A DNA stretch of 64,000 nucleotides from the NCBI GenBank assembly GCA_965285935.1, contig OZ260662.1:119908001-119972000 (forward strand). The letters run 5' to 3'. This DNA is from Ophelia neglecta (Eukaryota). Positions 19,881 through 55,321 of the stretch are shown one piece after another (the stretch's first letter is position 1; every line of letters starts with the position of its first letter). The translations under genes and the position numbers were made by a program. The notes beneath the pieces were generated by a model. The model searched no databases. It was not told the origin of the DNA and was given only the letters and a program-made list of their open reading frames with translations.

Positions 19881-20279
19881 GGCGGATAAGTATGACACCA
19901 TTAAACATTGGAATAGAATTTGCTCATCGCCTGAAATTTGATTTTACTATTTTTGTAACTTACTAAATGTAGAGATAAATAAATATAATAGCTATTTTAC
20001 ATAAAGTACGTCCAGGCACCGGTTTTAAGCATGACTGACTAGATTTTATTTTAATTTCAGCTTATATGGCGTAACATTCGCTCTTATATTCGCAGTTTAA
20101 GCCTAAGTCCGCCATTCCAGCTTTCATAGAGATTCTGAAAGGAAAATTTTGGCTAACATGGAAGGATGAAAAGTGTTTTATGCACCCAAAACTCTCATCG
20201 GCACTGAATAGAGCGATTTAGAAACTGCTAAGGATAAAAGAATATAGCTCTAGTATAGCGATGCAGAACAATAATATCG

Positions 20280-20600
20280 GACCAATTGGCTATGGCCGCA
20301 TTGTTTGTGATCGAAATGACCGGGACCGAAATGCCATATGATGGGCCACCCCTCGGCGGTTGGCTTCATGCCAAGAGAGTTCATCCTAAGGTCGGCTATT
20401 CTCCAACTGCAGCGTAGTAATATATTACTGGGTCGACCGGCTGCTGGCATTCCCCATTGTGACAATTCAGCGTTCGTCTCTGCATTGCCTTAACATAACG
20501 TGTTTATGTATTAAACGTGTCACAAATACCCACTGTATCCAAGATTCATCTATCTAAGAAGCGGTGTACTGGGGAGAAGGTCGTCCGTGACACGTTTCCG
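20280..20600 (+). promoter_or_regulatory. Putative promoter and non-coding exon 1 of CYP copy A
   Basis: NFI palindrome TTGGCTTCATGCCAA 20360-20374, AGTTCA-N5-AGGTCG 20378-20394, TATA-like TATTAAA ~20509, donor CCG|GTGAGT at 20600/20601. A matching acceptor lies at 22055. The block is conserved in three copies. Confidence 0.6.
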
Positions 20601-22096
20601 GTGAGTGTACGTGCTTTAGTCCACCTGTACAGTCGTTAGTCAAGGCCAGAAGGCCCTGTGTGTAGGAAAGTATCCTGTGAATACTCCGGTTTTACTAGAT
20701 ATAACCTGCTATGGTCATGTGTGAACTATTTATCAGTACCGTGATTTAAAACTAGAATGTTCAAGGCTTCAAGCTATAATAAGTTTAAGGTCCAGCATGT
20801 GTTAAGGCAGTTTTCTTACATGTATATATACTACATGGGACAATGTGGAATCTATAAATAGCATACTGTACCTGTCAGTGCGCTTACCGTACAATTCATT
20901 GCCGACAGGACAATGTCTATATAAATTGCTGCTAGTAGCCATTTACTTGCATAAACAGCCATTTGTAGAGGTTTCCCTCCCCCTGGCTGGAGGTTGGGGG
21001 GGGGGGCTGGAGTTTGGGGGAGGGGCGAAGTTAGGGGGGAAGGCTTGACGGTGGGGGAGGGGGCTGGAGGTTGGGGGGGGGGGGGGGCTGTAGGATGGTG
21101 GGGGGGGGGGGCTTGATGGGATGGGTAATATAAGGGTGTGCGGCTTGGAATGGGCATACATTTCCAAATGAATTTTTCTTTCGAGTAAATAATGAATGGC
21201 AGTAATGGTGTTTCTTCACTCTTACATTTAAAAGTCAAAACTAATAGATATTCAATTTGGTCAGGGTGCCAAATGATGTTCAGTGGGATTTCATAGCAAT
21301 GAATCTTGCGTCGTAATTGAGTGTTGTCTGGTTTTTTCACAGTTTCGTTTTAAATGCATCTGGATAGTTAACACAACCATTTATTAGTACTAACACTTTA
21401 TTGTAATGTATAACAACCAATTGTCATTGATAGAAATCTTTGATTTACCGTAGGTTTCGTACCAGCTCTGGGTCCGCGCGTGCCAACAATTTCTATTAGC
21501 AGCCTAGCAGCTGCACGCCCATCGCGCGTCCTCGCCCGAGAATCGCCATCGCTCGAACGCGACCCTCGTATACCACACATCACTTCTTAAAATCGAGTAC
21601 GCACGTGTGTAAGACAGACTACTTATTTCTTCGTCCGCGACATTACCCAAGAGGCTTTAGGCCATATACGAGCGAAAACCTCCGTCGGCCGAGCGCGCCC
21701 ATCGCGAACAATTACTTTAAGATGGACAGCATCTATCCTCATACGTCTCATTTGTGCAAAATGTTTTATTGATATCAACAAATGTATTCGTAGAAGTTAA
21801 TAATTAGGTGCTACATTCTGGATGATTATGAAATGACCAGAAATAGTCCTGTCTGGATCTCTTATGTGACAGGAACAGGATTGATACAAACCTTTTGCCC
21901 TTTACTTTTGGTTAGTTGGGACATTGAAGTAACAGCCACTTGTATGACCTTTTGTAAAAAAAAAATCATGTAAAAATATCAAGGTAATACAAAATACTAT
22001 AGTAAAAATATTAGTGTAGATTGAAACGCCATACATTTATACTGTTTTATGTCAGGTTCCGTGCATACCAATTTGAGGCTTAACCTAGCAAAAACA

Positions 22097-25000
22097 ATGT
22101 GTGATGTGCTGCGATTGGCCCATGACAACCAAGCCGCCATCTTAGCAGGTGTGGTGGTATTCCTAGGATCGTGGTTCTTCATGAAGTCATGGTTTTCCAG
22201 GAACCGGAAATCGACCCCAGGCCTTCCCAGCATTCCCATACTAGGAAGTCTCCCTTGGCTGTCCATAGATGTGAACCACCTAACATTCATGAAGCTCTAC
22301 AAAAAATACGGGGCCATCTACACCATGGACCTTGGGAGTCAGTAAGTTATATTAGCAGGAGACATGTAAACAGTCACGCATTATTTGAAATACCCATTCA
22401 ACTAAAAGCAAGTTTGTCATTATTATACGATCGCTGCAAGTATTAAGATAATCACAAGGGACGATACAGCAAAACATCAATGATACATCTTGGGTATCAT
22501 GCATACTCGCTGCCATAATTGAACCAGACATTTATCACAGCAACCCTCATGTCGTTTTAACATGTGGTAAAAATTGATGTATAGCATGGCACGAATGATG
22601 AATGGGTCTTCTTCAGGCGCACCGTGGTCCTGAACGACCACCGCAGCATACACGATGCACTCGTCAAGCAAGCAGTGATATTCGCTGATAGACCACCTTT
22701 CAATATGCTCAAGACAAATAAAAATCAACATGGTAAGCTGAGGGGTAATGTTTTGGGCTTCCAGCTGAGCTTTCTGAATGGAAGATTCTTGATTATTGAT
22801 TTTGTATTGAATGAATGGCATATACTCCCGTTTTGTCATCAAGGGGCACATCTTGATATTCTCTACTAATGCTTTGCCTGGGTCTACCAGGTATCCCCTC
22901 CCGTTTAATATATTACCTTTTTCAATATAGCATTTTAATTTAGCAGCTGTGTTTTAGTTTTTTTTTATTATATTTGAACTATTTTACATGTTATATCTTA
23001 ATGAGTAGAGTCAGCTAGCATTTTATTTATTATCGTGGTATCTCCTTGTGTATACTACAATGAACAGACTGGCATGTCTTTACCCATTACTGTACCTACA
23101 ATTGCCTAGATTAAGCGATAAGCAATGAGGGAGCAAACCCAAAAGCAGGGGTTCTTATATTGTCTAGAGAAGATAGCCTCTGTATTATTGCCCGCGTTCC
23201 CCATTCCACTCGTTTCTGCTAACGGTCTCATTCTTAACTCGGATAGATATCAAGATAAAAGTGCTTAATCAGTCTTAACTTGTTGATCTGTTTTTTATTG
23301 TAGCTAGATTTGGTGTTTATCTATACATTTTGGTCTTACATTTAATTGATCTACAGCTATTCGGTACAGGATAATCTTATCAACAAAATTCTAGATCCTG
23401 TGCCCTGTTATGGTGTCACAAAGCGTACGATGCACATGATATGAAAAACATTATTTCAGGTATAGTCGTTGCTCGTTTCGACGAGAAGTTCTCGCGCACC
23501 AAGCAGGTCTCTCTAGCCGTCATGCGGGACCTTGGGTGTGGAAGAAACGCTATGGAAGAAAGAATACTGTGTGAGGTTCGAGATTTACTTGACACTATAA
23601 GTAACCAAGAAGCCAAGCCTTTCGACCCTGGGGAACTTCTTTATGTTTCCGTTTCGAACATAGCCTGTTCTCTGCTTTTCAACAAAAGATTTGCTCATCA
23701 CGATGCCAGATTAATCGAAAAACTCACTATGCTCCGTGAGATGATAAAAACATCAGGCGAACTTGTCATTGCCAAAACCATACCTCTTATGTCATATCTC
23801 CCTTGGGCAAAGCGACGTCTTCAAGTATTGATAAGATGCGATCGCATTATAAAGGATTTCATTAGAGAGGAACTCAATTCCCAGTCTGTATCACGGAACC
23901 CGGAGGACCACGAGAGCAACTTTATGGCGGCATATACACATAAAATGGCCGCGGCCTTAGATGCAGAATCGCTGCCGTATATTGCTTTTGATTTTTTCGC
24001 GGCGGGAAGCGATACAACATCAACGACGTTACGATGGGCTTTGTTGTACATGGCAAATAACCCTGATGTACAGTCACGTGTTCAGCTCGAGATTGATGAC
24101 GTCATAGGCCAAGGTCGACCGCCGTCGATGTCAGACCGTGGGTCGTTGAATTATGTGGAGGCGGTTCTCTTGGAGACACTCCGCAAGTCTACTATCACAC
24201 CGTTAGCTGTTCCTCACAGATTGTCTTCTGACACCGAACTACAGGGATTCTTTCTGGAGAAAGGCACTGTGGTAAGTATTCCGGAATCTTCTATTTTTAA
24301 GTGAAGTTGATAAATTCGTATTGAGAGTCAGAATAGTGATTTTATATCAACTCGATCACTTAAAGTGTATATGTTAACTTAGCAGACAGGCTATTGTGTA
24401 TTTCTCATCTCATCCTTTACTAACTTTTAATCAAACATATATATATATATATCTTACATGGTCTCAATGTTTTGATACTCATAAATGTTTTCTTTCATCC
24501 AAAATGTATAAGTAAATAAGTTTGAACCAACAATCGGTTTTGGTTGAAATCCAAAATATAAAAATTAGGACAATATTAATTCAAATATTCTGCTGTAATC
24601 CTAGGTATACACCAATCTCTGGGCAGTTCACCATGACCCGGATGTGTGGCTTGACCCAGAAAAGTTTGACGCAGAACGTTTCCTTGACTGCCATGGGCAG
24701 GTGACCGGGAGGGAAAAGATAATTTCGTTTGGTGTAGGTATGTTGAGACGTGCTTCGGTTAATTTGTTCGTATTGTTAACAGTGATACATTACATGTGAC
24801 GTTTTGAACAAATCAGAGTGAACATGCAAAATGTGTCCGAAATGGGAGGCATCGATTGTGTCCGACTTAACATATATAAAACTGGCGAGTGGATTGACAT
24901 ATTATATGCCCATATCAAAGGCCTTTGAACAATCTACTTATATTTCTAGTTTTCATACACTAAAGATGATTTAATCACAATAATATGCCTCTTCACAGAA

Positions 25001-25904
25001 CGTATATACTCTCGTTTAATCTTATCTCCGAATAGCCTTGTATTGCCTCGTTTTTTTCCTCGTAAAACTTATTATCGCACCTTTAATAGTTAAACAATGT
25101 ATTTCCTCTACAAGCAAACTTGTCATTCTTAATTGACCGAACTTGCGATACTATTCGACATCTGGTGGGCGTCTCAGAACTGCAATTTCTGGAAATCCTG
25201 GTCGATCATGTGACTGTATTAGTGGCCGGCTTGCTTGACATGTGGTAACACCCGAGAGGCTGCTTTCTCAGAGCTGACTCCGCTCGTGGCTAAACTGCCT
25301 TCCAGTTTATATAGCTTATCGCTTCTGAAACCAGAAGAAATGTACATGCCTACTTGCATAGATGATAACCATTGAGAAAGTAAAAAATTAATTAGGCAGT
25401 AAACAACAACAATTAGTAATTTGTTTAAAATATTGGCATTATGTTCGTGGTAAGCTGCTTGGCTGTCCCTCCTCATTCTGCGCCAAGTATCTGAGATCTC
25501 CAATTTTAACGCTTCGACACTTATGAAATAGTTCAGTGCTTCCACAGTCAATATCATTTGTTAATGCACTATGATCGTATACAGTAGTAAAGCTCAAACT
25601 TGATGTTCTGACATGTTCGCTGTATGGCAAATGGTATTGCAGAATCGTGCATCTAACATAATGGCTTTTTTATATACAAATTCATTAAGGACTTAATGAC
25701 CTACATTTCCTTCCAACCCCTTAAGGTCGTCGTGCCTGCCTAGGAGAAGCCCTCGCCAGACAAGAGCTGTTCCTATATTTCACCTCAATTCTGCAGAGGT
25801 TCCATGTCCTACATCCACCTGGCAAAGAGAAAATGTCCGAGGAGGCGATATTCGGTACGGTCCTTACCCCGAAACCACACCAGCTTGTCCTAAAACAGAG
25901 ATAA
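22097..25904 (+). CDS. Cytochrome P450, CYP2 clan, copy A (494 aa, 5 coding exons)
   Basis: Exons 22097-22341, 22617-22732, 23460-24271, 24605-24737 and 25726-25904; all introns GT-AG with compatible phases; 1485 nt open. N-terminal membrane anchor, [12 protein letters not shown] hinge, FADRP, I-helix AAGSDTT, ETLR, FDAERF and heme motif FGVGRRACLG. Confidence 0.95.
23205..23405. mobile_element. Degenerate copy of the 3555-3782 MITE family in intron 2 of CYP A
   Basis: Shares GATAAAAGTGCTTAATCAGTCTTAACTTG and TCTTACATTTAAT with the other copies, at the same intronic position as 34289-34517. Confidence 0.55.
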
Positions 25905-26329
25905 ACTACAACAAACTACAAATACGGACCGAGCTATTCCATATGACTTCAAATTTATTACCACAACAAAGGATCAGTACTCACCATTTTGAATATACCA
26001 TGTAATTACATCTCGATTGACCTTGATTCAAGTATTGCCGCCATTTTCGGTATATTAGTTTTGCATTATCAAGCGGGTAGTTCCCCGATAGTTCTTTGAA
26101 ACCCGAAAAGAAACCATCTCCGGAGATGGTTTTGCATTTTTGGCGGGTTTTTGGGTTTCAGTCTTAAAAAGAGGGCAGTTTTGCAAAACAAAAACTAGTT
26201 TGAAAAAATTGTTAGCAAACCAACGCATTATAAAAAGATAGCCTACACCTACACGTACTTAATTAACAGCTTTTATGCCGGTCCGCATCACAAAAACACA
26301 CGTCCACGTCAAGTAATTGATTCATACCT

Positions 26330-26604
26330 GTATTTTGCTGAGATTTTTTTTTCTTGCTCTTTCCGCATTATATTATCAGTAGCATTTAATAGTAATTTTG
26401 TATTTTTCTAAGTTACCTTCATGCAGGTGGCTCCTATGATAGCGTTCCTCGCAGAACTTAATGGGAGTCTCCTTGACATATTAGTAGTGTAAATTTACCA
26501 TAAATAATGTATATATATATTACTAACCTCCAATATTTGTTGTACTTACCTCCCTATATCAATGTAAAAATGTGTCTAAATAAATACAATACCATACCAT
26601 ACCT
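26330..26604 (+). mobile_element. 5'-truncated LINE 3' end with (ATACC)n tail in the 3' UTR region of CYP A
   Basis: Absent from copy B (TGATTCATACC|ACAGG at ~40342). Flanked by CATACCT on both sides; AATAAA at 26579. Confidence 0.7.
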
Positions 26605-26778
26605 AGTGTCTAAAAAGCAGTGATTTTTTGTAATCTAAATTTCACTAGTTGGATGAACCCTTTGTTCCAACCAAATATTACTTTCTGTAATGCTGTGATG
26701 ATACTACAATGAACGAAACTAATATGAAGTTACCACAAGTAGCTAAGCTAAACGTCTTGTTGTAAAGAATTGTTGTTC

Positions 26779-26784
26779 AATAAA
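26779..26784 (+). terminator. Putative poly(A) signal of CYP A (paralogous signal at 40486-40491 for CYP B)
   Basis: AATAAA in the same conserved context (TTGTTCAATAAATG) downstream of both stop codons. Confidence 0.45.
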
Positions 26785-29244
26785 TGGCATTATTAATACT
26801 TAAATTTGGCCTTTATTCTCTCTTAGCTATTTGAAGTGAATGTATGCTACACAAATACTCATAGTAACTGGATAACGAACCTATCCAATACGTTATTCAG
26901 GCATGTGACTGATTCAGGCTTAACATTGTAGTGTGATTGAGCAGGTACTTGTTTAGTGTAAGATAATTACGTCCCCTGATTCTATAGTCCCTCTTCAACA
27001 AAACTAGAACTACATAATTGTTTCAATTTTGTTAGTCCGAGGAAATAGTAAACTATCTGATTTCCAGACTGGGTCCAGAATATACTTAAATTGCTGGACT
27101 GGTGTATATAGGTCTACCGAGATTGGTCCCTAGGTTGTTGACCGCAGCCCTGCCAGCATGAGTTACAGTCTTATGGACATGTGTGATGAAACATGCTCGA
27201 TGCAACATGTATAATGGCGACGTAGCAGCCTGTTACGACAGACTGTTTTGCAAATTTGAATGTCTCGTTTTGTTAGCTGCAATATGGTAATAATCTCTTG
27301 AGTATATTTTGACATTGTTTAATTGACGGATACATGTATAAAGGATAATCGTCGATGGGATTGGAACACGTGCACGCGATACTACTAGTAAGCTAGGGAT
27401 GGTCCTAGAGAGATGAGTCTAAGCTAGGCAGGTCCATTGGACTACATACCTCCGAGAAGCCTGAGACATAATTCTCAATTCAAGCTGCATGCATATTAAT
27501 GGATAGGATACAGTCATTGATTACAAGTTCTTAGTATGGAGGCAACTAATAATTTCTTTTATTTTTCACTAATAAATACCGTTTTAATACTTGAAAATGG
27601 CACATTTAAAAGAAAAAATATTTTGCAAGTGCTCATTCCATTTCTGTCCATTGTGCTTATGGCTCAGGATAAGCAGGGCCAAAGTTATAGGTATTTCGGT
27701 AATAACAGCAAGAAATCCCGTTTGCGCTGACGGGGTTTCCCCTCAAATCGCGACGGCATTGGAGCTATTGCGCCGTATGTCAAAATGTCGTCGTCTGCTC
27801 ACCGTCAACATGGTGTACTGCGTGGTGTGTGTGTGGGGGGGGGGGGGGCAGAGTACCGGCAGTGGAACATCCATACACAGATTCCCCAAAGTCCCAAGAG
27901 AATGCAAACAAATGGATTATCAAAGTGAAGTCGATAAGGCAATATTATAAACATAAAAAATTGCATACTTTGTTGACAGTGACTCTGTTGTACGTCGTGC
28001 AATTGCGCGAAATGCGGGATATGTCCCATCATCGTGTAGGTTGTTACCTGGGATGTTACCATCAGTGCCTGCATCTAGAAAGAAAAATGACACACCACGG
28101 GTGAGCAAGGCACTTCTCAAACGACAGACCCTCGAGGTAAGAAGGGTTTATTCACACTCCAATGTCACATGGTGAAAATTCATGTGCATCACATGACCAG
28201 CAAATATGCGTACAGTCCTACTGACCTATAACAAACAGCTGTCAGATTCGGGCGCACAGGTCTTCTTGCGATCTCCATATAAGTGAGATTTTTACCCTTT
28301 TGGTAATAAGAGCAAAGATAAACATAATGAATCAGTACTGCCAGATTGTTAAGTTTAAGTTATTACCTATTGCTCATAATTATCTAAGTAATATTGGTTA
28401 TTTAAGAAGGATTATGATATGTACATTAGCATTAGGTATCAAAGTATGGTACTAGCAAGAAAATGTCAGGGAGGGATGATTTCAAATAGGCTTAAAACTG
28501 GACATTTTAATATTACCTCAGTAGTATCGCGATTTTACCCCCTGTGTCATTAATGTATGTGGAATTCATTCCTTTGGTTGCTATGTTCATACCAAAGTGA
28601 CACCCACGAACGAGGTTAAGTGAAGCCAGCAGATATTATGTGCCCTGCTTAATTAGTTATTGTGTCATTAAACCCCAAAATCCAAGTCCAAATCTGTGCG
28701 TAAATTTATTCAGGGAATTCGAATTCACAGCCTTACAATCCAGGGTCCATACACTTGAATGAGTTTGTGAATAGTGGTATGTGAATGTTAGTAAAGGGCA
28801 TCACGAAAGCCTACCTAAGTGCCAGAGGTTCTAGTGTTGCGAATCTTTTTGCACTGCACATGCTTGTAGAACTTTTCGGATATTTGTCCCCAATCTCGTC
28901 AATATCCACCGAATAAAAAGTCGTGTATGCCAAATATCGCCGTAAGCTGAAAAAAGTCAACAGTAATAATTAAACTTAGGCAATGTTTTAAGAAATTTAA
29001 ATCACAAACTTTTAGCGTAGATTCTTATATCAATAATTCTATGCAGAACACATTTTAAGGAGTTACTCGGAGAATTTTATCACAGGTCTAAGTACATGGG
29101 GTCTTTTTTTCACTGAACATATTGAATCTGGAAATATCCAAACACAACAGAAGGAAGACAATATATATGTAGATCTGTTAGTAAGACAATGATCTAGTAC
29201 TTCTAGTACGTGGAAGTAATTATAGCAATGCAGAACAATCATTT

Positions 29245-29600
29245 CAGACCAATTGGCTATGGCCGAAATGGTTTTGAACAAAATAGCCGGGACCAAAATG
29301 CCAATTGACGGGATAGCTCCCGGCGTTTGGCTTCATGCCAACAGAGGTCACCCGAGGTATGCGTTTCTTTGACTGCAGTATAGAAATATATATGGGTCGA
29401 CAGGCTGCTGGCATACCCCAGTGTGACAATTCAGCGTTCGTCTCTGCACTGGCTTAACATTACGTGCTTATGTATTAAACCATAGATATGTATATTCTCT
29501 ATATCTATGATTAAACGTGTTACAAATACCCAATCTATCCAAGATTCATCTATCTAAGAAGCGTTGTACTGGGGAGAAGGTCGACCGTGACAAGTTACCG
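29245..29600 (+). promoter_or_regulatory. Putative promoter and non-coding exon 1 of CYP copy B
   Basis: NFI palindrome 29327-29341, AGGTCA-N4-AGGTAT 29345-29360, TATA-like box interrupted at 29480, donor CCG|GTGAGT at 29600/29601, acceptor TTTCAG at 33090. Confidence 0.6.
29481..29509. mobile_element. 29-bp miniature TIR element (CATAG...CTATG, 7-bp TSD; P-superfamily-like)
   Basis: 9-bp TIR CATAGATAT/ATATCTATG, with ATTAAAC duplicated at 29474-29480 and 29510-29516. Copies A and C have the empty site. Confidence 0.75.
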
Positions 29601-33131: not shown

Positions 33132-36100
33132 ATGTGTGAAGTGCTGCCAATGGCCTATGACAACCAAGCCGCCATCTTAGCATGTGTGGTTTTATTCCTA
33201 GGATCGTGTTTCTTAATGAAGACATGGTTTCCCAGGAACCGGAAATCACCCCCAGGCCTTCCCAGCATTCCCATACTAGGAAGTCTCCCTTGGCTGTCCA
33301 TAGATGTGAACCACCTAACATTCATGAAACTCTACAAAAAATACGGGGCCATCTACACAATGGACCTTGGAAGTCAGTAAGTAAAACTAGCAGGATACAT
33401 CTAAACGGACACGCATTATTTGAAATGCCCGTTCAACTAAAAGCAAGGTTGTCATTATTATACGATCGCTGCAAGCATTAAGATAATCACAAGGGACGAT
33501 ACAACAAAACACCAATGATACATCTTAGGTATCATGCATAATCGCTACCATTATTGAACCAGACATCTTTCACAGCAACCCTCATGTCGTTTTACATGTG
33601 AAAAAAAATTGATGTATAGCATGGCATGAATGATGAATGGGTCTTCTTCAGGCGCACCGTGGTCCTGAACGACTACCGCAGCATACACGATGCTCTCGTC
33701 AAGCAAGCAGTGATATTCGCTGATAGACCACCTTTCAATTTGGTCAAGACCAATAAAAATCAACATGGTAAGCTGAATATTTTGGGCTTCCAGCCGAGCT
33801 TTCTGAATGGATGATTCTTGATTATTGCTTTGAATTGAATGCTGGGTATCCACTCGCGTTTGGTCGTCAGGTGGCACATATTGATCTATGTATATAGGTA
33901 TATAATGTCCTGTGGCTGCATAGGCTAAGATTTAGGGCCTATTATTTTGTTTTCTTTCAATGATTATGCTTTGTCTGCCAGGTATCCTTTCCCGTTTGTA
34001 CATAACCTTTTTTTAGTATAGAAAATTATCAGCTGTTTTTATTATGTTATATATGAACTATGTTTGATGTTGTACCGTTATGAGTACAGTCAGCTAAATC
34101 TTAATGATATCTGATCTCCCGCCAGATCACTTGATCACTTATGTACACTTCAATGTACAGACTGGAATGGCCTTACCCATTACTGTACCTACACTTAAAC
34201 ACATAATATACAACCTTTATTATGCGAGATGCGATGAGGGATCGAAACCAAAAGCAGGGGTTCTTTTATTGTTTAATAAATAAGCTCTTGGCCCGGTTTT
34301 GGGAAACGGTCTCAGGACATACCACGGATAGATATCATGATTAAAGGGCTTAATCGGTCTTAACTTGCTAATCAGGTTTTATCGGAAGCAGGATTTGATC
34401 CTCTCCCTTGGCATTTTTATCTTACATTTAATCCTGGTAAATAAAAAACACTGATCAACACTGTCTTAGCTAATTGATAACAGACTAATCTAGTCCGTAA
34501 ACTTAGAATCCGGGCCCTGTTTTGGTGTTACAAAGCATTAGGGAGCGTTCTCACCAAATAGCAATACGACAGTCAAATCGACAAGGTTCAGGTCTAGGGG
34601 GGGTTGCTGTACATGGCCTACATCCATGAACCAACCCTTGAGCTGAGAGAATGCGGATTCGGTGCCACTCGTTGTAATATTGCGTGTCCATCCATTCTAC
34701 AAGCGGACGATATAGCTTCAATAGTCTATTTCCCCTTATCGCTCCAAAAATGATACACATATGTGAAGGTAATGCAAATAATTGGAGATATTCTTATAGT
34801 GACTCAAAAACAACAGTAATTATTTTCAATGAAACACCACGTGAGGCTAGGTGTCTTAACCCACATAGACGGTGGACGCTTAATGGCAAATCACTCACCG
34901 TATCACAAGAATCAACTCACCTTGGCATGATGTTTAGCACCTCACATAGTCATGCCAACAGGACAAAATACATATGCCATCGGCTGAAAAAGGGTATGAT
35001 CGCACTCATAGGGCTCGGGGCACATCCGAGAAGCATGGCAGTTCTCAAACAATATACGAGAAAATTGTCCAGAGTGTGTTAGGTAATTGTACACTTGCCA
35101 TTATGATGGAGCAAAAGAAGCTCCAGTTTTTCGGCTGCCTTCTTCATCTCCCGCCAGATCATTTCATCTCCCGTATTCTGAGGGAGCGCCTCCTTCATAC
35201 CCTGTTCTCCCCTGGGTTACCTAACGGTCTTCTCCCGGATATTGTCAGGTACTTGAGCTTCTTTGACTTGAAAGACACTATTAAGCATTTCTCGTGGCAG
35301 AAGAAATTCCAATTTTAAATTAGTGGAAATACTTGATCAAAGGCATTGTCCGCGAACACTATGAAACCTGGCTAAGGAGCCGGCTTGACTCGGACATGTC
35401 ATACCAGTTTTACACTGAAACGTCCAATGACCCGACAGTCACACTTCCACACCAGATATGGCTAGCCTCCAACCAATTTCCTGAACGTAAAATTCATTTT
35501 AAACAACTCGCCGATCTTGCCAGTAGGGAAAAGAAAAAGCTACATTCAGTGTGTATATTGCAATGTTACGATCTCAGATCAGGTATCGCACTACATATGT
35601 AACTGCCCACAGTTTATGGCCTAGAGACATTTTTTCCCGACTGCCTTTACTATGCCCGCAAATTTTACAAATCGTAACGTCACCTGGATCGGAGCAGCAG
35701 TTAAAATCGATAATGGCACTTGTCTTGTAGCCACATAAAGGGTTCAAAGCCGCCAGATCACAGCATTAAACCACACATGCAATGGTAATTTGCTAATATA
35801 ACCGGTCATATTCTTGAAGAAATGAGTTTAAACATCTGGCCCCCCTGCTGGGAAATCGCCATGTATCCAGAGAAAGTCCGGCTGCATGGGAAGGGTGAGT
35901 CAGTAGCGCCGAGGCCAGTTTGGAGGTGGTTGTTTCGTGATTAACCTGCGTCATGTGAGCTGTGCGTAGATGCCATGTTTTTGTCATATGATTTGTGTAA
36001 CCTTTTACGTACATGGCTGTAATACAATGTCAATAAAAATTATGAGGAAACCATGGCAATACCGAAATTAAGCGCTGTAACTGTCCGCAGAAATGAATTC

Positions 36101-39100: not shown

Positions 39101-39979
39101 CATTTGAAATGTAATGGTTTAAGCAATTTAAACTAACAATCGGTTTTTATTGACATCCAAAATATAAAAATTACCTTTTTAAATCAAAGGACAATATTAA
39201 TTGAAATTTTCTGTTGTAATCCTAGGTTTACCCAAATCTCTGGGCCGTTCACCATGACCCGGATGTGTGGCTAGACCCAGAAAAGTTTGACGCAGAACGT
39301 TTCCTTGACTGCCAAGGGCAGGTGATGGGGAGGGAAAAGATAATATCGTTTGGTGTAGGTATGTTGAGGCGTGCTTTGATTCATTTTCTCCGCTTGTGGC
39401 TAAGCTGCCTTCCAGAAGAAATGAACATGCGTACTTACACAGATGATAACAATTGGGAAAGTAAAAAATTGATTAGGCAGTAAACAACAATAAGCAGTAT
39501 TTTAAAAAGACTGGCTTTATATTCGTGGTAAGCTGTTTGGCTGTCCCTGCTCATTCGGCGCCAAGTATCTGATATCTCCAATTTTAGCGCTTCGACACTT
39601 ATGAAATTGTTCAGTGCTTCCACAGTCAACATCATTTGTTGCATGGGATCGGGTTCAATAGTTAATGCCCCTAACCGATTTTCTGACATGTTCCCTATAT
39701 GGCAAATGGTATTGCAGAATAGTGTATCTAATAGAATGGCTTTTTTATGTACACTTTCGTTAAGGACTTAATGACCTACATTTTCTTCACACCCCTTAAG
39801 GTCGTCGTTCTTGCCTAGGAGAAGCCCTCGCCAGACAGGAGCTGTTCCTATATTTCACCTCAATTCTGCAGAGGTTCCATGTCCGACATCCACCTGGCAA
39901 AGAGAAAATGTCCGAGGAGGCGATATTCGGTGTGGTCCTCACCCCGAAACCACACCAGCTTGTCCTAACACCGAGATAA
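33132..39979 (+). CDS. Cytochrome P450, CYP2 clan, copy B (494 aa, 5 coding exons)
   Basis: Exons 33132-33376, 33652-33767, 37594-38405, 39226-39358 and 39801-39979. Lengths match copy A (245/116/812/133/179), all GT-AG. Motifs PPGLP, AAGSDTT, ETLR, FDAERF, FGVGRRSCLG. Confidence 0.95.
34289..34517. mobile_element. Harbinger-like MITE in intron 2 of CYP B
   Basis: Ends GGCCCGGTTTT ... AGAATCCGGGCCC; same family as 3555-3782. Confidence 0.65.
34538..35780 (+). mobile_element. Degenerate 5'-truncated non-LTR retrotransposon (RTE/RTEX-like RT and C-terminal region)
   Basis: Manual translation [17 protein letters not shown]...[11 protein letters not shown] (34579-34717), then [22 protein letters not shown] and [12 protein letters not shown]. 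Multiple frameshifts; absent from copy A. Confidence 0.75.
36485..37085. mobile_element. hAT-like non-autonomous element
   Basis: 14-bp TIRs CAGGATGGCAAACT / AGTTGGCCACCCTG, repeated subterminal CTCAC(G/T)GT motifs at both ends, and flanking CACAGC duplicated (36479-36484, 37086-37091). Confidence 0.8.
38500..39075. repeat. 32-bp AT-rich minisatellite, about 18 copies (TTAACTGAGAAGACATGCAGTATTGTGTATTA), in intron 3 of CYP B
   Basis: Near-identical tandem units are visible. Copy A has a single diverged unit at ~24372-24402. Confidence 0.97.
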
Positions 39980-42420: not shown

Positions 42421-44175
42421 CTTAATTATTATTTATTTATTATTATTTAATTAGATTTCTCTTGCGCCTTTTCAGGCTAAACCTCTCAAAAGCGCAGTTA
42501 CAATAACACACATTTTATAGGGCAATTACATTAAAATGCAAAGTCTAAACATATACATACATATATGTGACTATACATTGTCTAATTATTTCTTTATTAA
42601 CAGTTGGTAATGTTAAGTTGGATTGTAGGATATACATTAAAACACATGGTTACACCAAACATTCATTATCAAATGCCAGACTGAAAAAATGTGTCTCAAG
42701 TCTGGGTTTAAACGTCTCAATACTTGGTGCTTGCCTGAGTGAGTCAGGGACAGTGTTCCACACTACAAGTGCTGCTTAAGAAAAGCGCCTGTGCCCATAC
42801 ATCTATGTCCTAACACGAGGGACAAACATATTGTCATGGCCACGAGATCTGAGGGCCCGACCGGGGCGTATAACAAATAGGAGGGGGCCAGACCATGTAG
42901 GCACTTGTATGTTAATAGGCACAACTTGAATAATATACGCCACTTAACAGGCAGCCAGTGCAGTTCTCTGAGTAAGGGGTAAACATGATGTCCATAAGGG
43001 GCATTAAATATCATCCTAGCTGCAGCATTCTGGACCCTCTGTAATTTGACCAACTGATTCTCTGGAAGGCCTGCATACAAGGAATTTACATTGTCCAGTC
43101 TGGATGTGACAAATGCATGTGTGATGCTTTCCAACGCATCGCAGGGTAGGAATTTTATAATCTTGGAAATATTTTGTAAATGATAAATGGCGCCTCTGCA
43201 TACCGAGTTTATATGGGCATTTGCAGAAGCATCCCTGCAGAACATGGCCCCAATGTTCATAGCAGACTCTGATTTAGGGATAGATGTTTCTCCCACTCGC
43301 ACTGTTTTGGGAGTGTTGCCTCTTGCTCAACGTGGTATAATTACCAACAGTTCAGTTTTACTGTCATTCAGTTTGAATAAGTTTGCTGCCATCCATATGC
43401 GAACAGAATCAATGCAGGTTTCAACTGTGGTGCAGACTGGTGAGAATTGATCAACACTTAATGAGGCATATAGCCTTGAGCATATCAGCATACACGTGAT
43501 AATTGATCACGCTCTTTCTTATAATGTCTCCAAGAGACATAGTGTAAATTGCGAATACCTGGGGGCCTAGTACACTTCCTTGTGGAACGCCGTTTAGTAA
43601 AGTTTGCGTTTCAGAACAGCTAAAACCAATCTTAACAGTCTGTGCCCTGTCACTGAGGTAGAATTGAAACCAATCGAGAGCTCGCGCTGTTACCCCAAAT
43701 CTATCTCTCAGACGTTTTCTTAATACAGCGTGGCTTGCAGTGTCGGAAGCGGCACTCAAATCAAGCAAAACAAGTAAGACACTACTTTGCTGTTCAAGAG
43801 TTGCAAGGATAGCATCCTGTACTCTAATCAAAGCCGTTTCAACACTGTGGTGCCTCTTATAGGCACTTTGAAATACTTCATTTAGGTTGTTTTCCTCGAT
43901 ATGATAAGAAAGTCTGTTAGACACAAATCTTTCGGCCAACTTACAGAGATAGGACAAATTGGCACTGGCCTTAAATTTGACATTTTTTCTTTGTCCAGAC
44001 CTGATTTTTTTAGTAGAAGTCGGACAATTGCCAGTTTGAATTTATGTGGCACAACACCAGATTTAAAGGATTGGTTTATAATTTGGTCATAGTGGGGAGC
44101 AACTCATCGAGTGACTCGACCAGTAAATACGTAGGTAGCGGGTCAAGCTCACAGCTCTTAGATGGGGCTGTTATG
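42421..44175 (-). mobile_element. L2-clade LINE, 5'-truncated and degenerate
   Basis: PSKSCELDPLPT, FQSAYKRHHSVETAL, LLDLSAA, GVPQGSVLGP, YAD, SRLD...LQRVQNAAAR...LHWLPV. 3' stem-loop GCGCTTTTGAG...AAAAGGCGC and an AAT-rich tail at ~42425-42495. Confidence 0.92.
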
Positions 44176-44729
44176 GAAGATATTTATTCAACTTGACACA
44201 ATGTATTTGTTCATTGTTTTATTTCCAGGGCTGTGTCCAACAATTTGTGAAAACTGAATGTCAAAGAAACTAATATTTTAATCACTATGACATGCAAAAA
44301 GAACTAGCTTTCCTATTATCGCTCACTATACATAAATTTCATGTTTAAACGACATAAATTCAAGTTCCACAAAAGCAGGCTATAAACATTAACATAATAA
44401 GATAGTTATAAATCTCAGTAATTACCACATTGCCCTTGGTATGTATAATGTCTCTTTAACTGTCAATTTTTACTGGAAGTTTGGATCCCTAAATGGACAA
44501 TGCATGACAAGCAAACTCAATGGACATATAAAAGATAAACTGCAATGTTTATTACATGTATATGAAATTCAATTTCACACTACGCAGCTACCCTACCTCA
44601 GCACGCTCCTACACAACAACATGACATTTATGACTGATGGTATGGCCTCCCATTTAAACTAAGACAACGTAGACTCTTAACTATTTCGTTTTATTTCTCC
44701 CACCAAATTTGTAAAGCAAATTTCTTTAA

Positions 44730-47700
44730 CTACATGTTCCTTCTAATAGAGACATATTTTGAATCGGACGCCGGTATTCCCAATGGAGTGTAGCCACCTT
44801 AGCAGACCTTACCAGATTGTCTTTACCTGGATACACATCGACCACCCTAGCAATTGAAACTAAGTGACAAAACGCCCAGTACTAATAATATAAGAACTAG
44901 TTAAGTTGCAAAACTCTTGGGCTCTATTAGCAACGGGTCCGTAAAGGATAGTTTGGACCCAATTATCGCTGTGGATATTGTGTCTATTAAAATATTCCAA
45001 GTCTGGAATTAGAGTATTTTTCGCAGAGTAGGAAGAAATGAAAGACACTCTCAGAGCTGGTACCACACGGACAGGTAGGAGAGAGAATACAATGGTTAAG
45101 ATAAAAATGTTGATTGAGACAGCTACAGCCAAGACAACATTGGGATAGAAAGATTTAAGTAAGTCTGCAGCCCATGAATACCAGGCAGGAGGTTTATGCA
45201 GGGGCCAGGAGATACGATTTCTGACACCTCGGAAACCTCAATTGACTCAACAAGGCCATATCTTTATACCACCTCTCCCACCTAGAACGTATGTCCGTGT
45301 CTATAGCATCATCCCAGCCACATGGAGAACGACATACTTCCTGAAAGAGAAGCTTTGCCACTAGCATTAAAGGAGATAACAAGCCTAAATTATCATATAA
45401 ATCACTGTTTGCAGACAAAAGTTGTCTTTTCGTTTGTGGTGTCGATATATGCTTGATTTTAAACACAAAGGTGTCCTCGTCTGGATTCCATTGTATGCCC
45501 AAAGCACATTCAGTTGGCAATGAATCTCTGTCCAAGTCTATTTGAGTAAAGTCCTTAGCTCTACATGCCGCTGGCAGAGCCTTTAGTAACTCTCTACTGT
45601 ACTGTTTGAAGAGAACTTTGTAAGATTAAAACCTCCTAACTTGATTAAGACACGAAACTGAAGAGCAAGTCTGATTCCCACTGGGGCGTCAAACACAGCT
45701 TTTAGACAATCATCAACGTACAGTGACTTGTTCATGGTACTAACTGTAACCTCGTCGCCATGTTCCTCAGCTGTGTATTTTACAGTGAAATTTGCACAAC
45801 TTGGCGACCACGCACCTCCAAACAAATTAGTTCTATATCGATATTCAACACCATTTCCTTCATCGCCAATTTTCTCATCGTCCTCCCAGCAAAGAAATGA
45901 GAGGACATTCCTATCATCCACGGAAACCATCACTTGATTGAACATTCCTTCAATGTCAGCCTGGAATGCAATCCTGTCTTGGCTGAACCTTAGTTAGACA
46001 CCAATGAGTTTGTTCAACAGGTCAGGTCCAGTAAAGACGTTGTCATTTGGACTCTTGCCCTTGTATTTTGCACTGCAATCACTTACGATTCTAACCTTGC
46101 CCGGTTTTCCCGGGTGTGTAACTGCATGGTCAGGTAAGTACCACTTTGTCTTTCTAAGAACGCCAACCATCGGCTCCCCTACTCTCTCTACTAACCCTTT
46201 GTCAATATTTTCATTCGTCCCTTTGACATACTGTTCATACAACACTGTATCTCGCAAGAGTTTACGACCCAAAGACCTTAACCTCTTCAATGCTACTTCT
46301 CTACTGTTCTTCAGATTAACTGGACGAGCCTTAAAAGGTATGTTTAGATGGTTATGACCTTTAAAGAATTGAATGGAGGATCTCTACTCATTAATCACCT
46401 TCTTATCATCAACAGACAACTTTGAAGTATTTTCAACACTCTGTATGTCATCTAATGTCCAAATCCTTTCCACAGACGCACGTAATGCATCATCTGCTTC
46501 AGAAGTGAAACATGATTGGAGACCTCCAACATGACTCGACATTGCACCACAAACAGACCAACATAACACATTGCGATGCCGTAAGGTTCCATGCGATCCC
46601 TCCCCTTGCGAATTTCTATCGGGACCAGTATTTCAGAGTTGTTTTGACCGATGAGGAGATCAATATTGTTCAAATCTACTGATGGGATACATAAATCACG
46701 AAGATGAGGCCTTCTGCTGATCTGTTTTCCTGTAGCTTTACAAGAAAGAGACATGTTTAATGAAGGCCGCGATAGTACTCGACACAAGGCATAAGTCTCC
46801 CCATCTGAAAAACTCTGAACACTAAAGTTAGGTAACTTTCACTCAACCTGCACAACTTGTCTATCTATAGTCGTGAATTCAGTAACATAAGTCTCTGATG
46901 GAATGCCGAGTTGTTCCAGTAAGCTTTCAGTACATAAAGTACTAGTAGAGCGTTGATCCAGAAGTGCATAAACTAATTTTGACATGTGTGGGCCCTTAAC
47001 TATGACTGGAAAAACATGCAAAGCAATGGACGAGTAACCAACAGTAGCTGCAGTGTACTCCTCATTCACAATACTACTTTCCGTTATAGCATTACAATTT
47101 TCTTGTGAAGTCACTGCATGTACTGTAGTACCTGGCGTTACAACAGAAGTGGTGTGCACCTACCCCTCAACTGAATTGATATGAATGCTAGAGTGATGAC
47201 GTTTTCCACAGTGGTAACATGAAAATGGACTCTTGCAACGTAACATATAATGATTTGATCTTCAGCAATTGGGACACAGTCGTTTTGATTCTACAAATTC
47301 AATCTTTTGTGGTACAGACATTTGTTTATATTGTGAACATTGCATAACAGAATGATCACCATGACATATAATACATTAAAGTTTGACATCATTTCTACTT
47401 TCTACACTATTCTTTGGGGTGTTAGACTGAACGCTAGACGACACTCTTGTGTTTCTTTCACTTTGTCTTGGGGACCTTTCATTTCCTACAGGAGTACCAC
47501 CACCTGATGAGTCCTGTACCCAAAACGTTTGTTCACGATGAGGCTTATTTTTCTGATTGGGTTTGTTGGGGGTTTTGTCGCAGTCTTGTAACTCACTGCC
47601 AAAAAACGGATCCGATTTTTCTTTGATTACTCTTTGGATAAACTTAATCAAGTCCTCAAGATTGACCTTTCTCTCTGTCTCGCGGATATTTCAGGGACGC

Positions 47701-49885: not shown

Positions 49886-52800
49886 CTATTTCAGTTTAAA
49901 GCAATGGTAGATAAATGCTGCCAGTTGTCTGAGCAAGTGCTCATTTGTCGTTGCCACTAAAAATATGAATTTATTGAAGCCTGGAAATGGCTTATAGTAG
50001 ACTTCAGGAATATATTGTAACCTCGACTCGTTGAACCTTGAACAAACCAAAATCATATGAAACTCATCTTCTACCAGATATTTATCTAATTCCATACAAA
50101 ATTCACAACTCCTAAATTCCCTTTCAATCCGACCTCTTTTTCGTTCAACAGCCAACCTGTGATTTGAACATCGAAGTTTAGATAAGGCTCTTCTATGAGT
50201 GAATATTTTGACACACAGCAAGTAAGGCTCAACTTCCAAATTCTGCTTAAAAGCTTTATAAGTTACCAATTTTGATATGTCATTGACATTTGCATGCCAT
50301 GCCTGCATTTCGGTATCCCTTAACCTCTGCTTGAACTCACTTAGAAATAAAAGACTATTTGCCACGCCTTGATTAAACCAGATATGCTGATAGCCATAAT
50401 TAGATAATAATGTTCTTAACCTTGTAGCCCATGTAATCTTACCAACACTATCAAGATTATGCAGCATTGCATAACATGACTTTATATGAGTACTGTCATC
50501 TACATGAATAATTTTTAACCACAATTTAACACATCTATGTGCGTAATGAACATAAAGGGGCATACGACCACATTCACCAAGAACAGCAGCGTTTGTTGTT
50601 TGAGTAACAACTCCTAGTACATACTTACAATATTTAATATGGATTTTCTCTATAATAGGTTGGTGTACATATCCCCAAATTTCGGAACCATACAAGAGGA
50701 TTGGCAATACCATGGAATCAAACAACTTAAAATACATATGAAATGTCAATCCCCCACACTTTTTTGAAATATCTTTGATAACAAAGCAAGCTTTTTCTGC
50801 CTGAGAGGCAAGCTGTTTCAAGGCTGGTGCCCATGACAATGAAGATGAAAATAATAACCCTAGATATTTGTAATAAGTGCATGTTTGCACTCGTTGACCA
50901 TTTAAAAACCATTTTTCATTCTTCTTTATAATTCCCCCTCTCCTAAAAACAATAATTTTTGTTTTGTCTCTGTTAACAGTTAAACCATGGTCTAATGTAA
51001 ACTGGCTTAATACATTTAATTCCCTTTGTAGCCCGGCTACTGTGTCATTGAGCATAGAAACATCATCTGCGAAAATAAGTATACATAGTGAATCACAATC
51101 AACATTGACATAAATGCCCTGGCACTGCCTTTTGCACAATTCTGCTAATTCATTTATATTCAATATGAAAAGGAGAGGACTCAACATACAACCCTGGCGT
51201 GTTCCTGACAAACAATTAAAAAATTCAGACAGCTTTCCCTTTACTTTTACACATGATTTTAACTGACTATACATTGATCAAAGGACTGTGAGAATTTTGC
51301 CATGTATACCCTTTTTTATTAAAAAGACACCATAGCCCTAGATGTGGGACAGAATCAAACGCCTTTGAGAAGTCAACAAAAGCACAATAAAATCTTCCCT
51401 TGCTTTTACAAAGATGCTTTTGTGCACAAGCATACAGGGCAAAAACATTGTCAACCGTTGACCTGTTTGGTCTATACCCAGCCTGACCATCATCTATTTT
51501 AACATTATTTTCTGCCCACAATACTAATCTGTTATTTAGAATTTTTGTGAAAATTTTGCTTACAGTACATAACAAGGAAATACCCCTATAATTATTGACA
51601 TCGTTTCTGTCGCCTTTCTTTAAAAGAGGACTAATAATGGCTCGACACCATGTTTCTGGGTAGACACCAGAATCCAAAATAAAATTAAAAAGATTACACA
51701 AGTGATTTTCAAGTAAATCAAAATTAGTTAGTAAACATTTCATATGGTATTCCATCAATTCCTGGGGCCTTATTCTTGGGTAGATCTTTTATCACCTTGC
51801 TAATCTAGTCCGAAGTCATGATGTCATTCAGATTGACAGGAATATTTTCGAAACAGCTATCATAAAAAAACTCCATCATTTGACAATACAGAATATATAG
51901 ATTCATCACTTAAAAAACCATTAACATTTAATAAACTATCAAAATACTCTGCCCATTGTTCACAGGTAATATCGTTTGAAACCTGGGTGTTCCTCAACTT
52001 GCCGATAGCTTCCCAAATATCATTATTCAAAGTAAGAGCTGACCTAAGAATTCCAATTTTTTGTTTTTTGAAGTCCGATTTTTTCTCAAAAAAACGATTA
52101 CATTTTTGCTTTACTTTCTAAATAAATAATTAAATGCAAGTCACAATTTGTAACTCTAAACCTATTCAAACTAGATGATACCTCATGTTTCATTTGGTCA
52201 CATTCAGAGTCCCACCACAATCTATCATTACTGAGAGGCTTCATAAAAGCGTTCCTCTCTGTGTGGCACTTTGTTACCATACATTCACCAGCTCTGACCA
52301 ATACATTTGTAAACAGAGATACAGAACCATCAAGATCCCCTTTTGTGATCTTTCGATCGATTTGAGTTAAAATGTCACATGCAGCAGAATCACATATTAA
52401 AGACCTAAATTCATCCTTTTTATCTGGTCTCCATTTAAATTTCACATATTTGCTACCCTCAGTTGATGTGTTTTGGTTAAAGTTGTTTTGACTCGGGTTT
52501 CCATTAATACAAATAGAACAAATCAAAGGGAAATGATCTGAACCGGTCTCCGTAGAGACTTTAAAATCATGTACATAACGAAATAAATCTGTTGATATAA
52601 TAAAATAATCAACAACACTGCAACCCGTTTTAGCTATATAAGATGAATTACCATATTTATCCCCTGGTAACCGACCATTTGCTATATGACAATTCAATGT
52701 TTTGCATAATTCAATGAGCTCTATTGAATTACAGTTTTATCTTGTGATCTCCTTTCCATTACAAAATTATCCACTGGATACCATTTACTCAGATGATGAA

Positions 52801-53368
52801 TGAAATGTGTAAATGAATCATCTTCCAGAATGTAATCTTTTAGGGCACCAACTCTGCTATTGAAATCGCCACAAATAATTAAATTTTCATTAGTATGAAT
52901 TATTCCTTGAATGAAACCCTTTAATTCTATGATGCCATTGATTTCCTCTCTGTCTGTGTAAAATGTAGATCGCTCATCTGGTACATAAACAAAAACTAAC
53001 AAGCAAGATACATTATTTGGAGCTATCTCCTTGCTTAATCTACAGCATAAACATAAATCGTTTGACTGAACAAACTGAACAAAACCGGAAAGTTTCTTTT
53101 TAATACATACAGATATACCTCCAGGCACTCTGCCTTTTGTCCTTCGCCGAGATCCATGAACAGAATAAATAATGTAATTGTCACCTAAATTTTTTTCAAT
53201 AAGCTCATTGTTTGCAGTCCAAGTTTCCTGCAAACTTATAATGTCACAGTTCTGTAAGAAATCGTCGCTATTGCTAAATTCAATTAAATTGTGTAGTCCA
53301 TGCACATTCCATGAAACTAAACGCAATAGATCTATACCTGTTTGTACTGTGGCACCACGGCCAGTGTC
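49886..53368 (-). pseudogene. LINE ORF2: AP endonuclease, reverse transcriptase and C-terminal Cys/His domain (frameshifted)
   Basis: SWNVHGL, LQETW, GDFNSR, VVDY and SDHFPL (APE); NYRGISLL, FVDFSKAFDSV, RQGCMLSPLLF and FADD (RT); RCSNHRL...CEFC...EDEFH...C. Split across ORFs 52721-53326, 52098-52697, 51267-51758 and 49886-51274. Confidence 0.92.
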
Positions 53369-54442
53369 CTACATATCTGAAGTTGCTCCTCTATCTGGAC
53401 TCCCCCGATTGGACGGCTGACTCTGTGTACGTTCCCCAGGAACTACTGTCAAGTTATCGTATTCATCGAGGTAATGTTGTCTCTTTTCTATGACCAATTT
53501 ATCAAAGCTGAGATAGGTTGTCTTCTGTTTCCTAGCCTCAAGCATAAAAGGGATAAGTTTCTTCCTTATTTCTCTGACTTTCTGGCTGTAGTCATGCGTT
53601 ACCTTGACAACGGGAAGCTTCACATCCCTGGCCTTCTCCAGAATCATATTCTTCTGTTTCCATCTACACATCCTTACAACGATGGGTCTGTCGCGATTTC
53701 TTGTCTTCCGCCCGACCCTATGCGCTCTCTCTATCTCTATAATTTCTTCTTCGTCTATACCAATATCTTCCTTTAGAACTTTCACTAACTTTTCCTCTGT
53801 CTTTTCCCAAGTCTCCCATGCCTGTTCTTTCACTCCGTAAATCACAAGATTGTTCCTTCGGGAGTGATCCTCTCGATCTACTACAGCCCGCTCCAATCGT
53901 GCCAGACGGTCAGTTTCTAACTTGTTTACCTTCGCGGCCATGTTGCTTTGTACAGTCTTGACACGATCTACTGCATTGTGCACAATCTCGACTGCCGTCT
54001 TACAGTCATCAACTTTCTCATCTAGGTCCTCAATGAATTTCTGAATGTTGTCACCTTGGTTTTCAATAGATTCTACACTGACACGCATGTACCTAACCTC
54101 TTGTTGAAGTTTAGTCATCACGGTCAGAACGAGCTGCATACTTTGGTTTGTATCCAGGCCAGAGACATCCGGCACTTCCACGGTCTGTGACTCTGCCACT
54201 CCGCTTTCACTTGAACAATCAGCAGCAGAACCTTGGCCGGCCCGAGGCTGTGTATGCGTTGTACGCTGGAGTAAAGGACTAGCGACAATTCTACAAGTAC
54301 GTTTGTAGTCCGGGCTGAAGTCTTGACCACTGCTGACACTGCTACTCGTACTTGCTTTCCTTGCCTTCCTCTTATTTGCAACCTTTGTCCATAATTCCTC
54401 CTCATTCTCGCCATCTTCATACATCATATGACTTATCTCCAA
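53369..54442 (-). CDS. LINE ORF1, L1/Transposase_22-like (coiled coil, RRM-like, CTD), 357 aa
   Basis: Heptad region followed by EDHSRRNNLVIYGVKE, IERAHRVG, RPIVVR, DYSQKVREIRKKL and LSFDKLVI. Confidence 0.88.
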   Translation of the reverse strand: MEISHMMYEDGENEEELWTKVANKRKARKASTSSSVSSGQDFSPDYKRTCRIVASPLLQRTTHTQPRAGQGSAADCSSESGVAESQTVEVPDVSGLDTNQSMQLVLTVMTKLQQEVRYMRVSVESIENQGDNIQKFIEDLDEKVDDCKTAVEIVHNAVDRVKTVQSNMAAKVNKLETDRLARLERAVVDREDHSRRNNLVIYGVKEQAWETWEKTEEKLVKVLKEDIGIDEEEIIEIERAHRVGRKTRNRDRPIVVRMCRWKQKNMILEKARDVKLPVVKVTHDYSQKVREIRKKLIPFMLEARKQKTTYLSFDKLVIEKRQHYLDEYDNLTVVPGERTQSQPSNRGSPDRGATSDM

Positions 54443-55014
54443 TTATTGTAGTAAACAATATCCAAGCAAAAAAGACAAAAACTTCAGAGCCGACAGATAG
54501 GCACAAGCTATCCGGTTCACGCATGCCCCCAAAAAAAAAAAAAAAAGAAAAAAGTAGACTGACTAGGTTTTATTTTAATGTCGCCTCCCCCCCCCCCCCC
54601 TCCCAGTAAAATCGGTTATGCATAAAAATATAACTAGCCTTTCAGCGGGCCCAAAGACTAATTATATATGTGCACTTTCCACGAGGCATGGGTAGGTAAA
54701 GGATTTTGTATTCTCGGGTTATTAGTAACTTGGTGCAATCATCTGAACAATTTCAAAGGCCAAAGTAAATGAGAGTTATGATGTTTCAGCTTTCTATGGA
54801 GTAACATTCGGAGTTTAAGCTTAAATCAGATAACACAGCATTCATATAGCGCCTTGAAGAAACCATAAGGGAGGAACCTAGAAGGATAATAAAGTGGTGT
54901 ATGCAGCCGGAAATCTCACCGGCACTGAATAGAACTATTCACAAACAGCCAAGGATAAAATGATAAACCTCTAGTACGTGGAAGTAATTATAGCGATGCA
55001 GAACAATCATTTCA

Positions 55015-55321
55015 GACCAATAGGCTATGGCCGAATTAGTTCTGAACAAAATAACCGGGACCAAAATGCCAATTGACGGGATAGCTCTCGGCGTTTGGCT
55101 TCATGCCAACAGAGGTCACCCGAGGTATGCCTTCTTTCGACTGCAGCATAGAAATATATAATCTGGGTCAACAAGCTGCTGGCATACACCATTGTGACAC
55201 TGCAGCGTTCGACTCTCAATTGGCTTATGTATAAAACGTGTCACAAATACCCACTCTAACCAAGATTCATCTGTCTAAGAAGCTGTGTACTGGGGAGAAG
55301 GTCGACCATGACACGTTACCG
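55015..55321 (+). promoter_or_regulatory. Putative promoter and non-coding exon 1 of a third CYP copy (C)
   Basis: NFI palindrome 55095-55109, AGGTCA-N4-AGGTAT 55113-55128, TATAAAA at 55230, donor CCG|GTGAGT at 55321/55322. Confidence 0.55.

Follow-up and report, generated by a model that had tools for sequence, protein, structure and literature searches.

Does a promoter-like block that recurs in a cytochrome P450 (CYP) cluster of the annelid Ophelia neglecta work like half of the mammalian phenobarbital-responsive enhancer module (PBREM)? The block lies in a 64,000-nucleotide stretch of contig OZ260662.1 (positions 119,908,001 to 119,972,000, forward strand; hereafter the window), and joins a perfect NFI-type palindrome to a pair of hexamers that resembles a nuclear-receptor direct repeat (DR). 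The original prediction, made from the letters alone, took this arrangement for a xenobiotic-inducible module placed upstream of three CYP2-clan gene copies. We find that the block is one ancestral stretch that tandem duplication has brought to four copies within a three-gene CYP2-clan cluster. With a probability of about 0.55 (all odds given here, in figures or in words, are a matter of judgement), the block is a core promoter with a non-coding exon 1, in which the palindrome would bind NFI and the hexamer would act at most as a weak receptor half-site, and not as a dedicated xenobiotic switch. That it also works like half of a PBREM is much less probable.

The palindrome, TTGGCTTCATGCCAA, is the only perfect NFI-type site in the window and occurs at 20360, 29327 and 55095 (copies A, B and C), exactly where it had been reported. 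A fourth copy stands at 66233, ahead of a further gene, D, in extended coordinates that continue beyond the window end. Shuffled sequence gives an expectation of 0.09 for the three window sites, a comparison that overstates significance because the three matches are inherited copies of one site; they had been counted as belonging to three independent gene copies, and they descend from a single ancestral one. In every copy a hexamer pair starts 3 nt after the palindrome. It reads AGTTCA-N5-AGGTCG in copy A (palindrome 20360-20374; pair 20378-20394, forward strand), which is DR5-like with one mismatch, and AGGTCA-N4-AGGTAT in copy B (palindrome 29327-29341; pair 29345-29360, forward strand), which is DR4-like with two. 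Copy C carries the same pair as B (palindrome 55095-55109, DR4-like element 55113-55128, together 55095-55128 on the forward strand), and the spacing in D is likewise that of a DR4. The pairs had been described correctly, as had the presence of one DR only, with an imperfect second half-site: no RGKTCA is found within 130 nt upstream of the NFI site on either strand, and the single RGKTCA-based DR stands on one side.

A TATA-like TAT(A/T)AAA run lies 135-149 nt after the NFI start, as TATAAAA in C and D and TATTAAA in A and B (in module A a weak match at 20509-20515, forward strand), and a second TATA-like run follows at about +60. The NFI start is 227-274 nt ahead of the predicted exon-1 donor. 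This consensus donor, CCG/GTGAGT, is present in all four copies and falls at 20601, 29601 and 55322 in A, B and C, such that the TATA-like box and conserved splice donor of the original prediction are both in place. AG acceptors end at 22055 and 33090, 41 nt ahead of the ATG. Other motifs turned up in the block just as easily (ARE-like in C only, RCGTG, CCAAT and AGAACA), and the window has no match in Rfam.

Only two intact five-exon P450 genes are contained in the window, both on the forward strand: A (22097-25904; exons 22097-22341, 22617-22732, 23460-24271, 24605-24737 and 25726-25904) and B (33132-39979). The third, D, occupies 68882-73367 in extended coordinates beyond the window end. 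Each encodes 494 residues, and the three are about 90% identical over exon 3, with dN/dS of 0.24-0.29. Their assignment to the CYP2 clan, made by best matches, agrees with the original prediction: the p450 domain is recognised (Pfam PF00067, E 2.8e-51), the best named matches of the exon-3 protein (28-39% identity) are mostly CYP2J/2D/2C-like, and the P450 signature motifs (I-helix AGxDTT, ExxR and haem FxxGxRxCxG) occur in all three gene models.

In genes A, B and D the block precedes the ATG by 1.7-3.8 kb and ends in the CCG/GTGAGT donor, and in each of the three the AG acceptor stands 41 nt ahead of the ATG. Module A, delimited by the four-copy alignment, comprises the promoter-like block and predicted non-coding exon 1 (20254-20600, forward strand), and is followed by a predicted intron 1 running from the GTGAGT donor to the AG acceptor (20601-22055, forward strand; sequence signals and copy alignment). 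Module B spans 29199-29600 on the forward strand, and its duplicated unit begins at 29199, 128 nt ahead of the NFI site. Module C (54967-57393, forward strand) is a partial duplicate: it comprises the promoter-like block, a predicted exon 1 with its donor at 55322 and a portion of intron 1, and has no coding exons of its own. Genes B and D have no CYP exon between them; the three CYP2-clan copies first proposed for the window thus reduce to two coding genes. Since 53493-56541 recurs at 64630-67640 (extended coordinates) with 94% identity, C and module D (NFI site 66233, donor 66460, extended coordinates beyond the window, with intact gene D) are sister duplicates, each comprising the promoter, exon 1 and a portion of intron 1. 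They may be arranged in tandem, or may represent two mis-joined haplotypes. Contigs of one sample, in three sets, were compared with two stretches, the C/D junction lying outside both. Across 19881-20527, which takes in the NFI/DR part of module A, these contigs run through with no difference. They also cover C-specific intron DNA, and they show no splice joints, which carries no information on expression. Contigs of the C/D type are deeper than those of the A type, depth being no copy number, and one contig joint skips 58368-63747, which corresponds to a LINE-like (long interspersed nuclear element) insertion described below.

The original prediction had itself raised the prospect of a dispersed repeat unrelated to CYP transcription. 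The block is not one, because its 217-nt core has only four matches in the genome, all in this cluster; a wider search returned 13 others, each covering only 30-60 nt around an insertion specific to B.

Comparison of the copies gives a block divergence of 12.0% (A-B), 14.9% (A-D) and 10.6% (B-D), and a fourfold-synonymous divergence of 14.4%, 12.1% and 10.5% for the same pairs. Between A and the other copies the block is 12-16% diverged versus 20-30% for adjoining non-coding DNA, and over long stretches of intron the divergence of B from C and D is only 8-9%. The block has 415 gap-free columns, 330 of which (79.5%) are invariant. The NFI site is indeed invariant, as had been claimed, in 15 of 15 columns, but this is not unusual. 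The chance of such a result at a fixed place is 0.03, or 0.10 for the ten informative bases, figures that apply post hoc since the site was picked for being invariant; five runs of 15-17 invariant columns exist in the block, the NFI run included, and 97% of 5000 column permutations give a run of at least 15. The DR, for which special conservation had been supposed, has 11 of 17 columns invariant and contains an indel, a lower proportion than the block as a whole. Its last spacer base is G, A or C (the C being found in contigs from three of three runs of one sample), and the half-sites of B, C and D are unchanged. The change of spacing between A and the other copies had been presented as a DR4 to DR5 switch. 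The spacing does differ, but the switch depends on the register chosen, because an alternative DR4 register, ATGCCA-N4-AG(G/T)TCA, overlaps the right half of the NFI site and keeps the same spacing in all four copies. With two mismatches, this register is as degenerate as the one first read, and the supposed switch may be plain spacer drift.

Genome-wide counts provide a measure of chance. Perfect palindromes with a 5-nt spacer number 1049 in the 762-Mb genome, versus 633 with a spacer of 4 and 1793 with a spacer of 6 (the last visibly repeat-driven), so that across the genome the 5-nt NFI spacer is not clearly preferred. Any given 400 nt has a 0.055% chance of holding a perfect palindrome, or roughly 1 in 1800. 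RGKTCA occurs within 12 nt of a palindrome 54 times, counted by strand, versus 25 expected. Among these 54 matches, 19 represent one dispersed element (by matched letters; nine were aligned), 4 are in this cluster and several others recur; after collapsing repeats about the expected number is left, and the pairing of NFI site and half-site therefore stands at about chance. In 197 kb of background from other loci, two-mismatch DR4s occur at 0.7 per kb and one-mismatch DR5s like that of copy A at 0.025 per kb. A relaxed composite pattern, which was defined after seeing the site, has 19 matches in the genome, 4 of them in this cluster; none of the other 15 lies at a listed CYP match, the nearest being about 150 kb away.

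Recurrence of the motifs at other CYP promoters of the genome, a check that had been proposed at the outset, is not seen among older paralogs. Outside the cluster there are 26 full-exon CYP matches of 42-62% identity, of which 19, in 20 loci, were examined (four 2.3-kb tandem exon copies and three members of the 42% group were omitted). With the two exon-fragment-array loci dropped, the scan covered 136 kb in 18 upstream regions, three of them without a recognised coding exon 1. None of the 18 regions carries the NFI and DR composite, although promoters beyond the DNA scanned would be missed, and none shows homology to the block (best profile E 6.5). Likewise, blastn of the four modules against the 20 loci returned only the simple insertion specific to B and chance words. 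One region, L049, has a perfect palindrome 4.4 kb upstream; two others, the near-identical sisters L032 and L033, have one that keeps both cores and carries a single mismatch. All three have a one-mismatch half-site 1 nt later; 32% of random sites have one nearby. DR4 and DR5 densities in paralog upstream DNA (0.42 and 0.65 per kb) are not clearly above background (0.70 and 0.61 per kb). The AG acceptor ahead of the ATG is also present in most older paralogs. A DR4 upstream of paralogs L034 and L035 (AGTTCA-4-AGGCCA), considered for its likeness to copy A, was rejected: it is on the opposite strand, is without an NFI site and aligns no better than shuffles. The paralogs form a CYP2-clan bloom at C2:107.8-109.6, 117.0-118.0 and 94.2 Mb and C9:18.4 Mb, with 2.3-kb tandem copies and broken members.

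The PBREM packs an NF1 site and a pair of DR4 sites into 51 bp (PMC7555422) and is located at -1.7 to -2.3 kb (PMC5045548). What stands of the proposed likeness is that a CYP2-clan gene is preceded by an NFI site with a DR4-type element at its side, and that the half-site nearest to the NFI site is a perfect RGKTCA. In contrast to the two DR4 sites (NR1 and NR2), fixed 4-nt spacer, distal position and CYP2B target of the mammalian module, the block has one degenerate DR with a spacer of 4 or 5 nt, a proximal NFI site 135-149 nt ahead of the TATA-like box, and genes 28-39% identical to CYP2J/2D/2C-like proteins, with no CYP2B orthologs. In the rodent module, NR1 lies directly against the NF1 site; the gap between NFI site and DR here is 3 nt. 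By membership, the cluster block is not a PBREM. The block is closer to the ordinary proximal promoters with NFI sites of tandem CYP blooms, which it resembles in having a consensus NFI site near a TATA-like box, a promoter copied with its gene, and transposons between copies. Unlike those promoters, copy C is an orphan placed in series with gene D's own.

The genome contains one NFI gene, an RXR gene whose N-terminal exon has its best named match in the echiuran annelid Bonellia (56%), and four receptor exons carrying ESCKAFFRR, an NR1J signature (PMC4388693). We regard these exons as candidate NR1J-type receptors; the one checked has FXR, EcR and VDR DNA-binding domains as its best matches. 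The receptor repertoire is large, with 72 zinc-finger matches, and no NR1I was recognised, by inspection and without a tree, among 67 of these. Judged by such matches, the proposed actors (NFI, RXR and an NR1J-type receptor) exist in the genome, as would be anticipated in a lophotrochozoan; the number of NR1J receptors in molluscs is three or four (PMC4245547, PMC4388693, PMC3140985). The NR1J-type genes include two tandem pairs, at C7:62.98-62.99 Mb and C1:49.67-49.69 Mb, and many divergent NR1-type and apparently two-DNA-binding-domain receptor exons occur across 19 of the loci retrieved.

Several observations weigh against the reading of the block as an ordinary promoter with a bound NFI site. 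The whole block is no more conserved than fourfold-synonymous sites, which, together with the counts of 633, 1049 and 1793 by spacer, leaves the NFI site without proof of constraint. Conversely, the hexamer might be more than a weak half-site: the first half-site reads RGKTCA in all four copies, the sole change being a tolerated G/T, and a perfect half-site with a DR4/5 partner (at most two mismatches) lies beside only 0.3% of 20,000 random sites. These last two findings leave a real receptor element some probability. A true composite of NFI and a receptor, of whichever kind, nonetheless appears unlikely to us, if by no means negligible. It could consist of NFI and NR1J, with or without RXR, bound side by side and inducing the cluster after xenobiotic exposure, a convergent PBREM-like module that we consider improbable. 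The order of sites is that of the NR1-NFI half of the mammalian module, the target is of the CYP2 clan, and the four ESCKAFFRR exons, RXR and NFI are at hand, CYP genes being plausible targets of protostome NR1J receptors (HR96/DAF-12/NHR-8). The composite is rare in background and, by the relaxed pattern, in the genome, the last spacer base varies while the half-sites of B, C and D do not, and human CAR often binds a single AG(T/G)TCA hexamer, whereas mouse CAR prefers DR4 (PMC6144799). However, there is one proximal DR instead of two, its spacer differs among paralogs, its span is less conserved than the block, the composite is missing from the 18 paralog regions, and none of the 15 other relaxed matches falls at a listed CYP match. 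The high-affinity DR5 of DAF-12, the only characterised NR1J element met in the literature searched, has AGTGCA half-sites (PMC3140985), and AGTGC(A/G) has no conserved position in the block, its single match being in B at a distance of 118 nt from the NFI start; annelid NR1J receptors may not share this nematode preference. The literature searched, which covered few subscription papers, contained no invertebrate CYP module of NFI and nuclear receptor, no NFI partnership of a protostome NR1J, no annelid response element and no functional annelid NR1J link.

It is similarly doubtful that NFI cooperates with another receptor to give a hormonal or tissue-specific output, be it RAR/RXR at copy A's DR5, a different RXR heterodimer, COUP-TF, HNF4 or a monomer at the single perfect half-site (names that, apart from RXR and NR1J, are putative assignments by P-box pattern). 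In the annelid Platynereis, RAR/RXR binds DR1, DR2 and DR5 and has only marginal affinity for DR4 (PMC5821490). With its one mismatch, the copy A element is of a type scarce in background, many zinc-finger matches are available, and only the first half-site is kept throughout, but the weak conservation and lack of recurrence in paralogs count equally here. Neither motif may work at all, both being chance words in a recent duplicate that were noticed because duplication tripled them. The match between block and synonymous divergence, the frequency of long invariant runs in permutations and the absence of a spacer preference are consistent with this explanation. The rarity of a perfect palindrome in 400 nt and the lower divergence of the block than of adjoining DNA in comparisons with A argue otherwise, and we hold it to be improbable as well.

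The ordinary-promoter reading is favored by the finding that every intact gene keeps a copy of the block, and that B, with only 128 nt upstream of its NFI site, has an intact frame. It is favored too by the confinement of the block to this cluster, by the donors and acceptors, by the rarity and invariance of the palindrome together with the existence of an NFI gene, and by the weakness of the DR. Beyond the copy number, gene structure, motif positions and NFI gene, all of which are directly observed, transcription would start from the block, and exon 1 would be spliced to the acceptor 41 nt ahead of the ATG. NFI bound some 135-150 nt ahead of the TATA-like box would then support basal or tissue-level expression. 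Orphan copy C could serve as an extra upstream promoter or alternative first exon of gene D, or could be a dead remnant.

Mobile and repetitive DNA surrounds the modules. A broken LINE with ORF1-like, endonuclease and reverse transcriptase frames lies upstream of module C, head to head with it (49886-54442, reverse strand; protein and profile matches, copy comparison), and a second broken LINE-like insertion, on the same strand, lies within the intron-1 remnant of C (58368-63747; protein and profile matches, contig joint). In the region from window position 53493 to 64000 and beyond, the duplicated unit takes in the 5' part of a LINE, which points away from the promoter. Fragments of a reverse transcriptase and a Pao-type retrotransposon occupy 42763-46838, in the interval that separates gene B from module C. 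Tandem arrays with units of 32, 39 and 59 nt are found at 157-1480, 8120-8950, 11284-15900 and 38371-39200, and one 32-nt array sits in the gene B intron after coding exon 3. An (AGTTC)n run (19473-19498) in high-copy repeat DNA, some 0.9 kb ahead of module A, holds three perfect DR4 matches. Elsewhere in the genome, in the dispersed element noted above (about 300-400 bp, with apparent imperfect terminal inverted repeats), AGGTCA follows a perfect NFI palindrome after 2 nt. The element also has CCAAT, CACGTG and a TATA box, seen in nine of the loci retrieved, around position 1500. Two copies, at C2:117.53 and 117.56 Mb, are some 300 kb from CYP paralogs. This element may be a mobile promoter; it shares no sequence relationship with the CYP block.

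As it stands, the block is an ordinary duplicated promoter, and it warns that recurrence of a motif across young paralogs is one observation, not three. In the boldest case, which we think quite improbable, an annelid CYP2-clan cluster independently evolved an NR1J-read module of NFI and receptor sites like half of a PBREM, tuned by the DR4/DR5 change in one paralog and by a doubled promoter ahead of gene D. If true, it would be a natural response element for a lophotrochozoan xenosensor, of which we found none in the literature searched; a 2014 review regarded it as unlikely that cognate elements were at hand for the xenosensors of marine invertebrates (PMC4245547). Should the receptor element be real, it would offer a concrete DNA target for deorphanising annelid NR1J receptors; the naturally occurring variants, a DR5 in A and a DR4 in the other three copies, form a ready test set.

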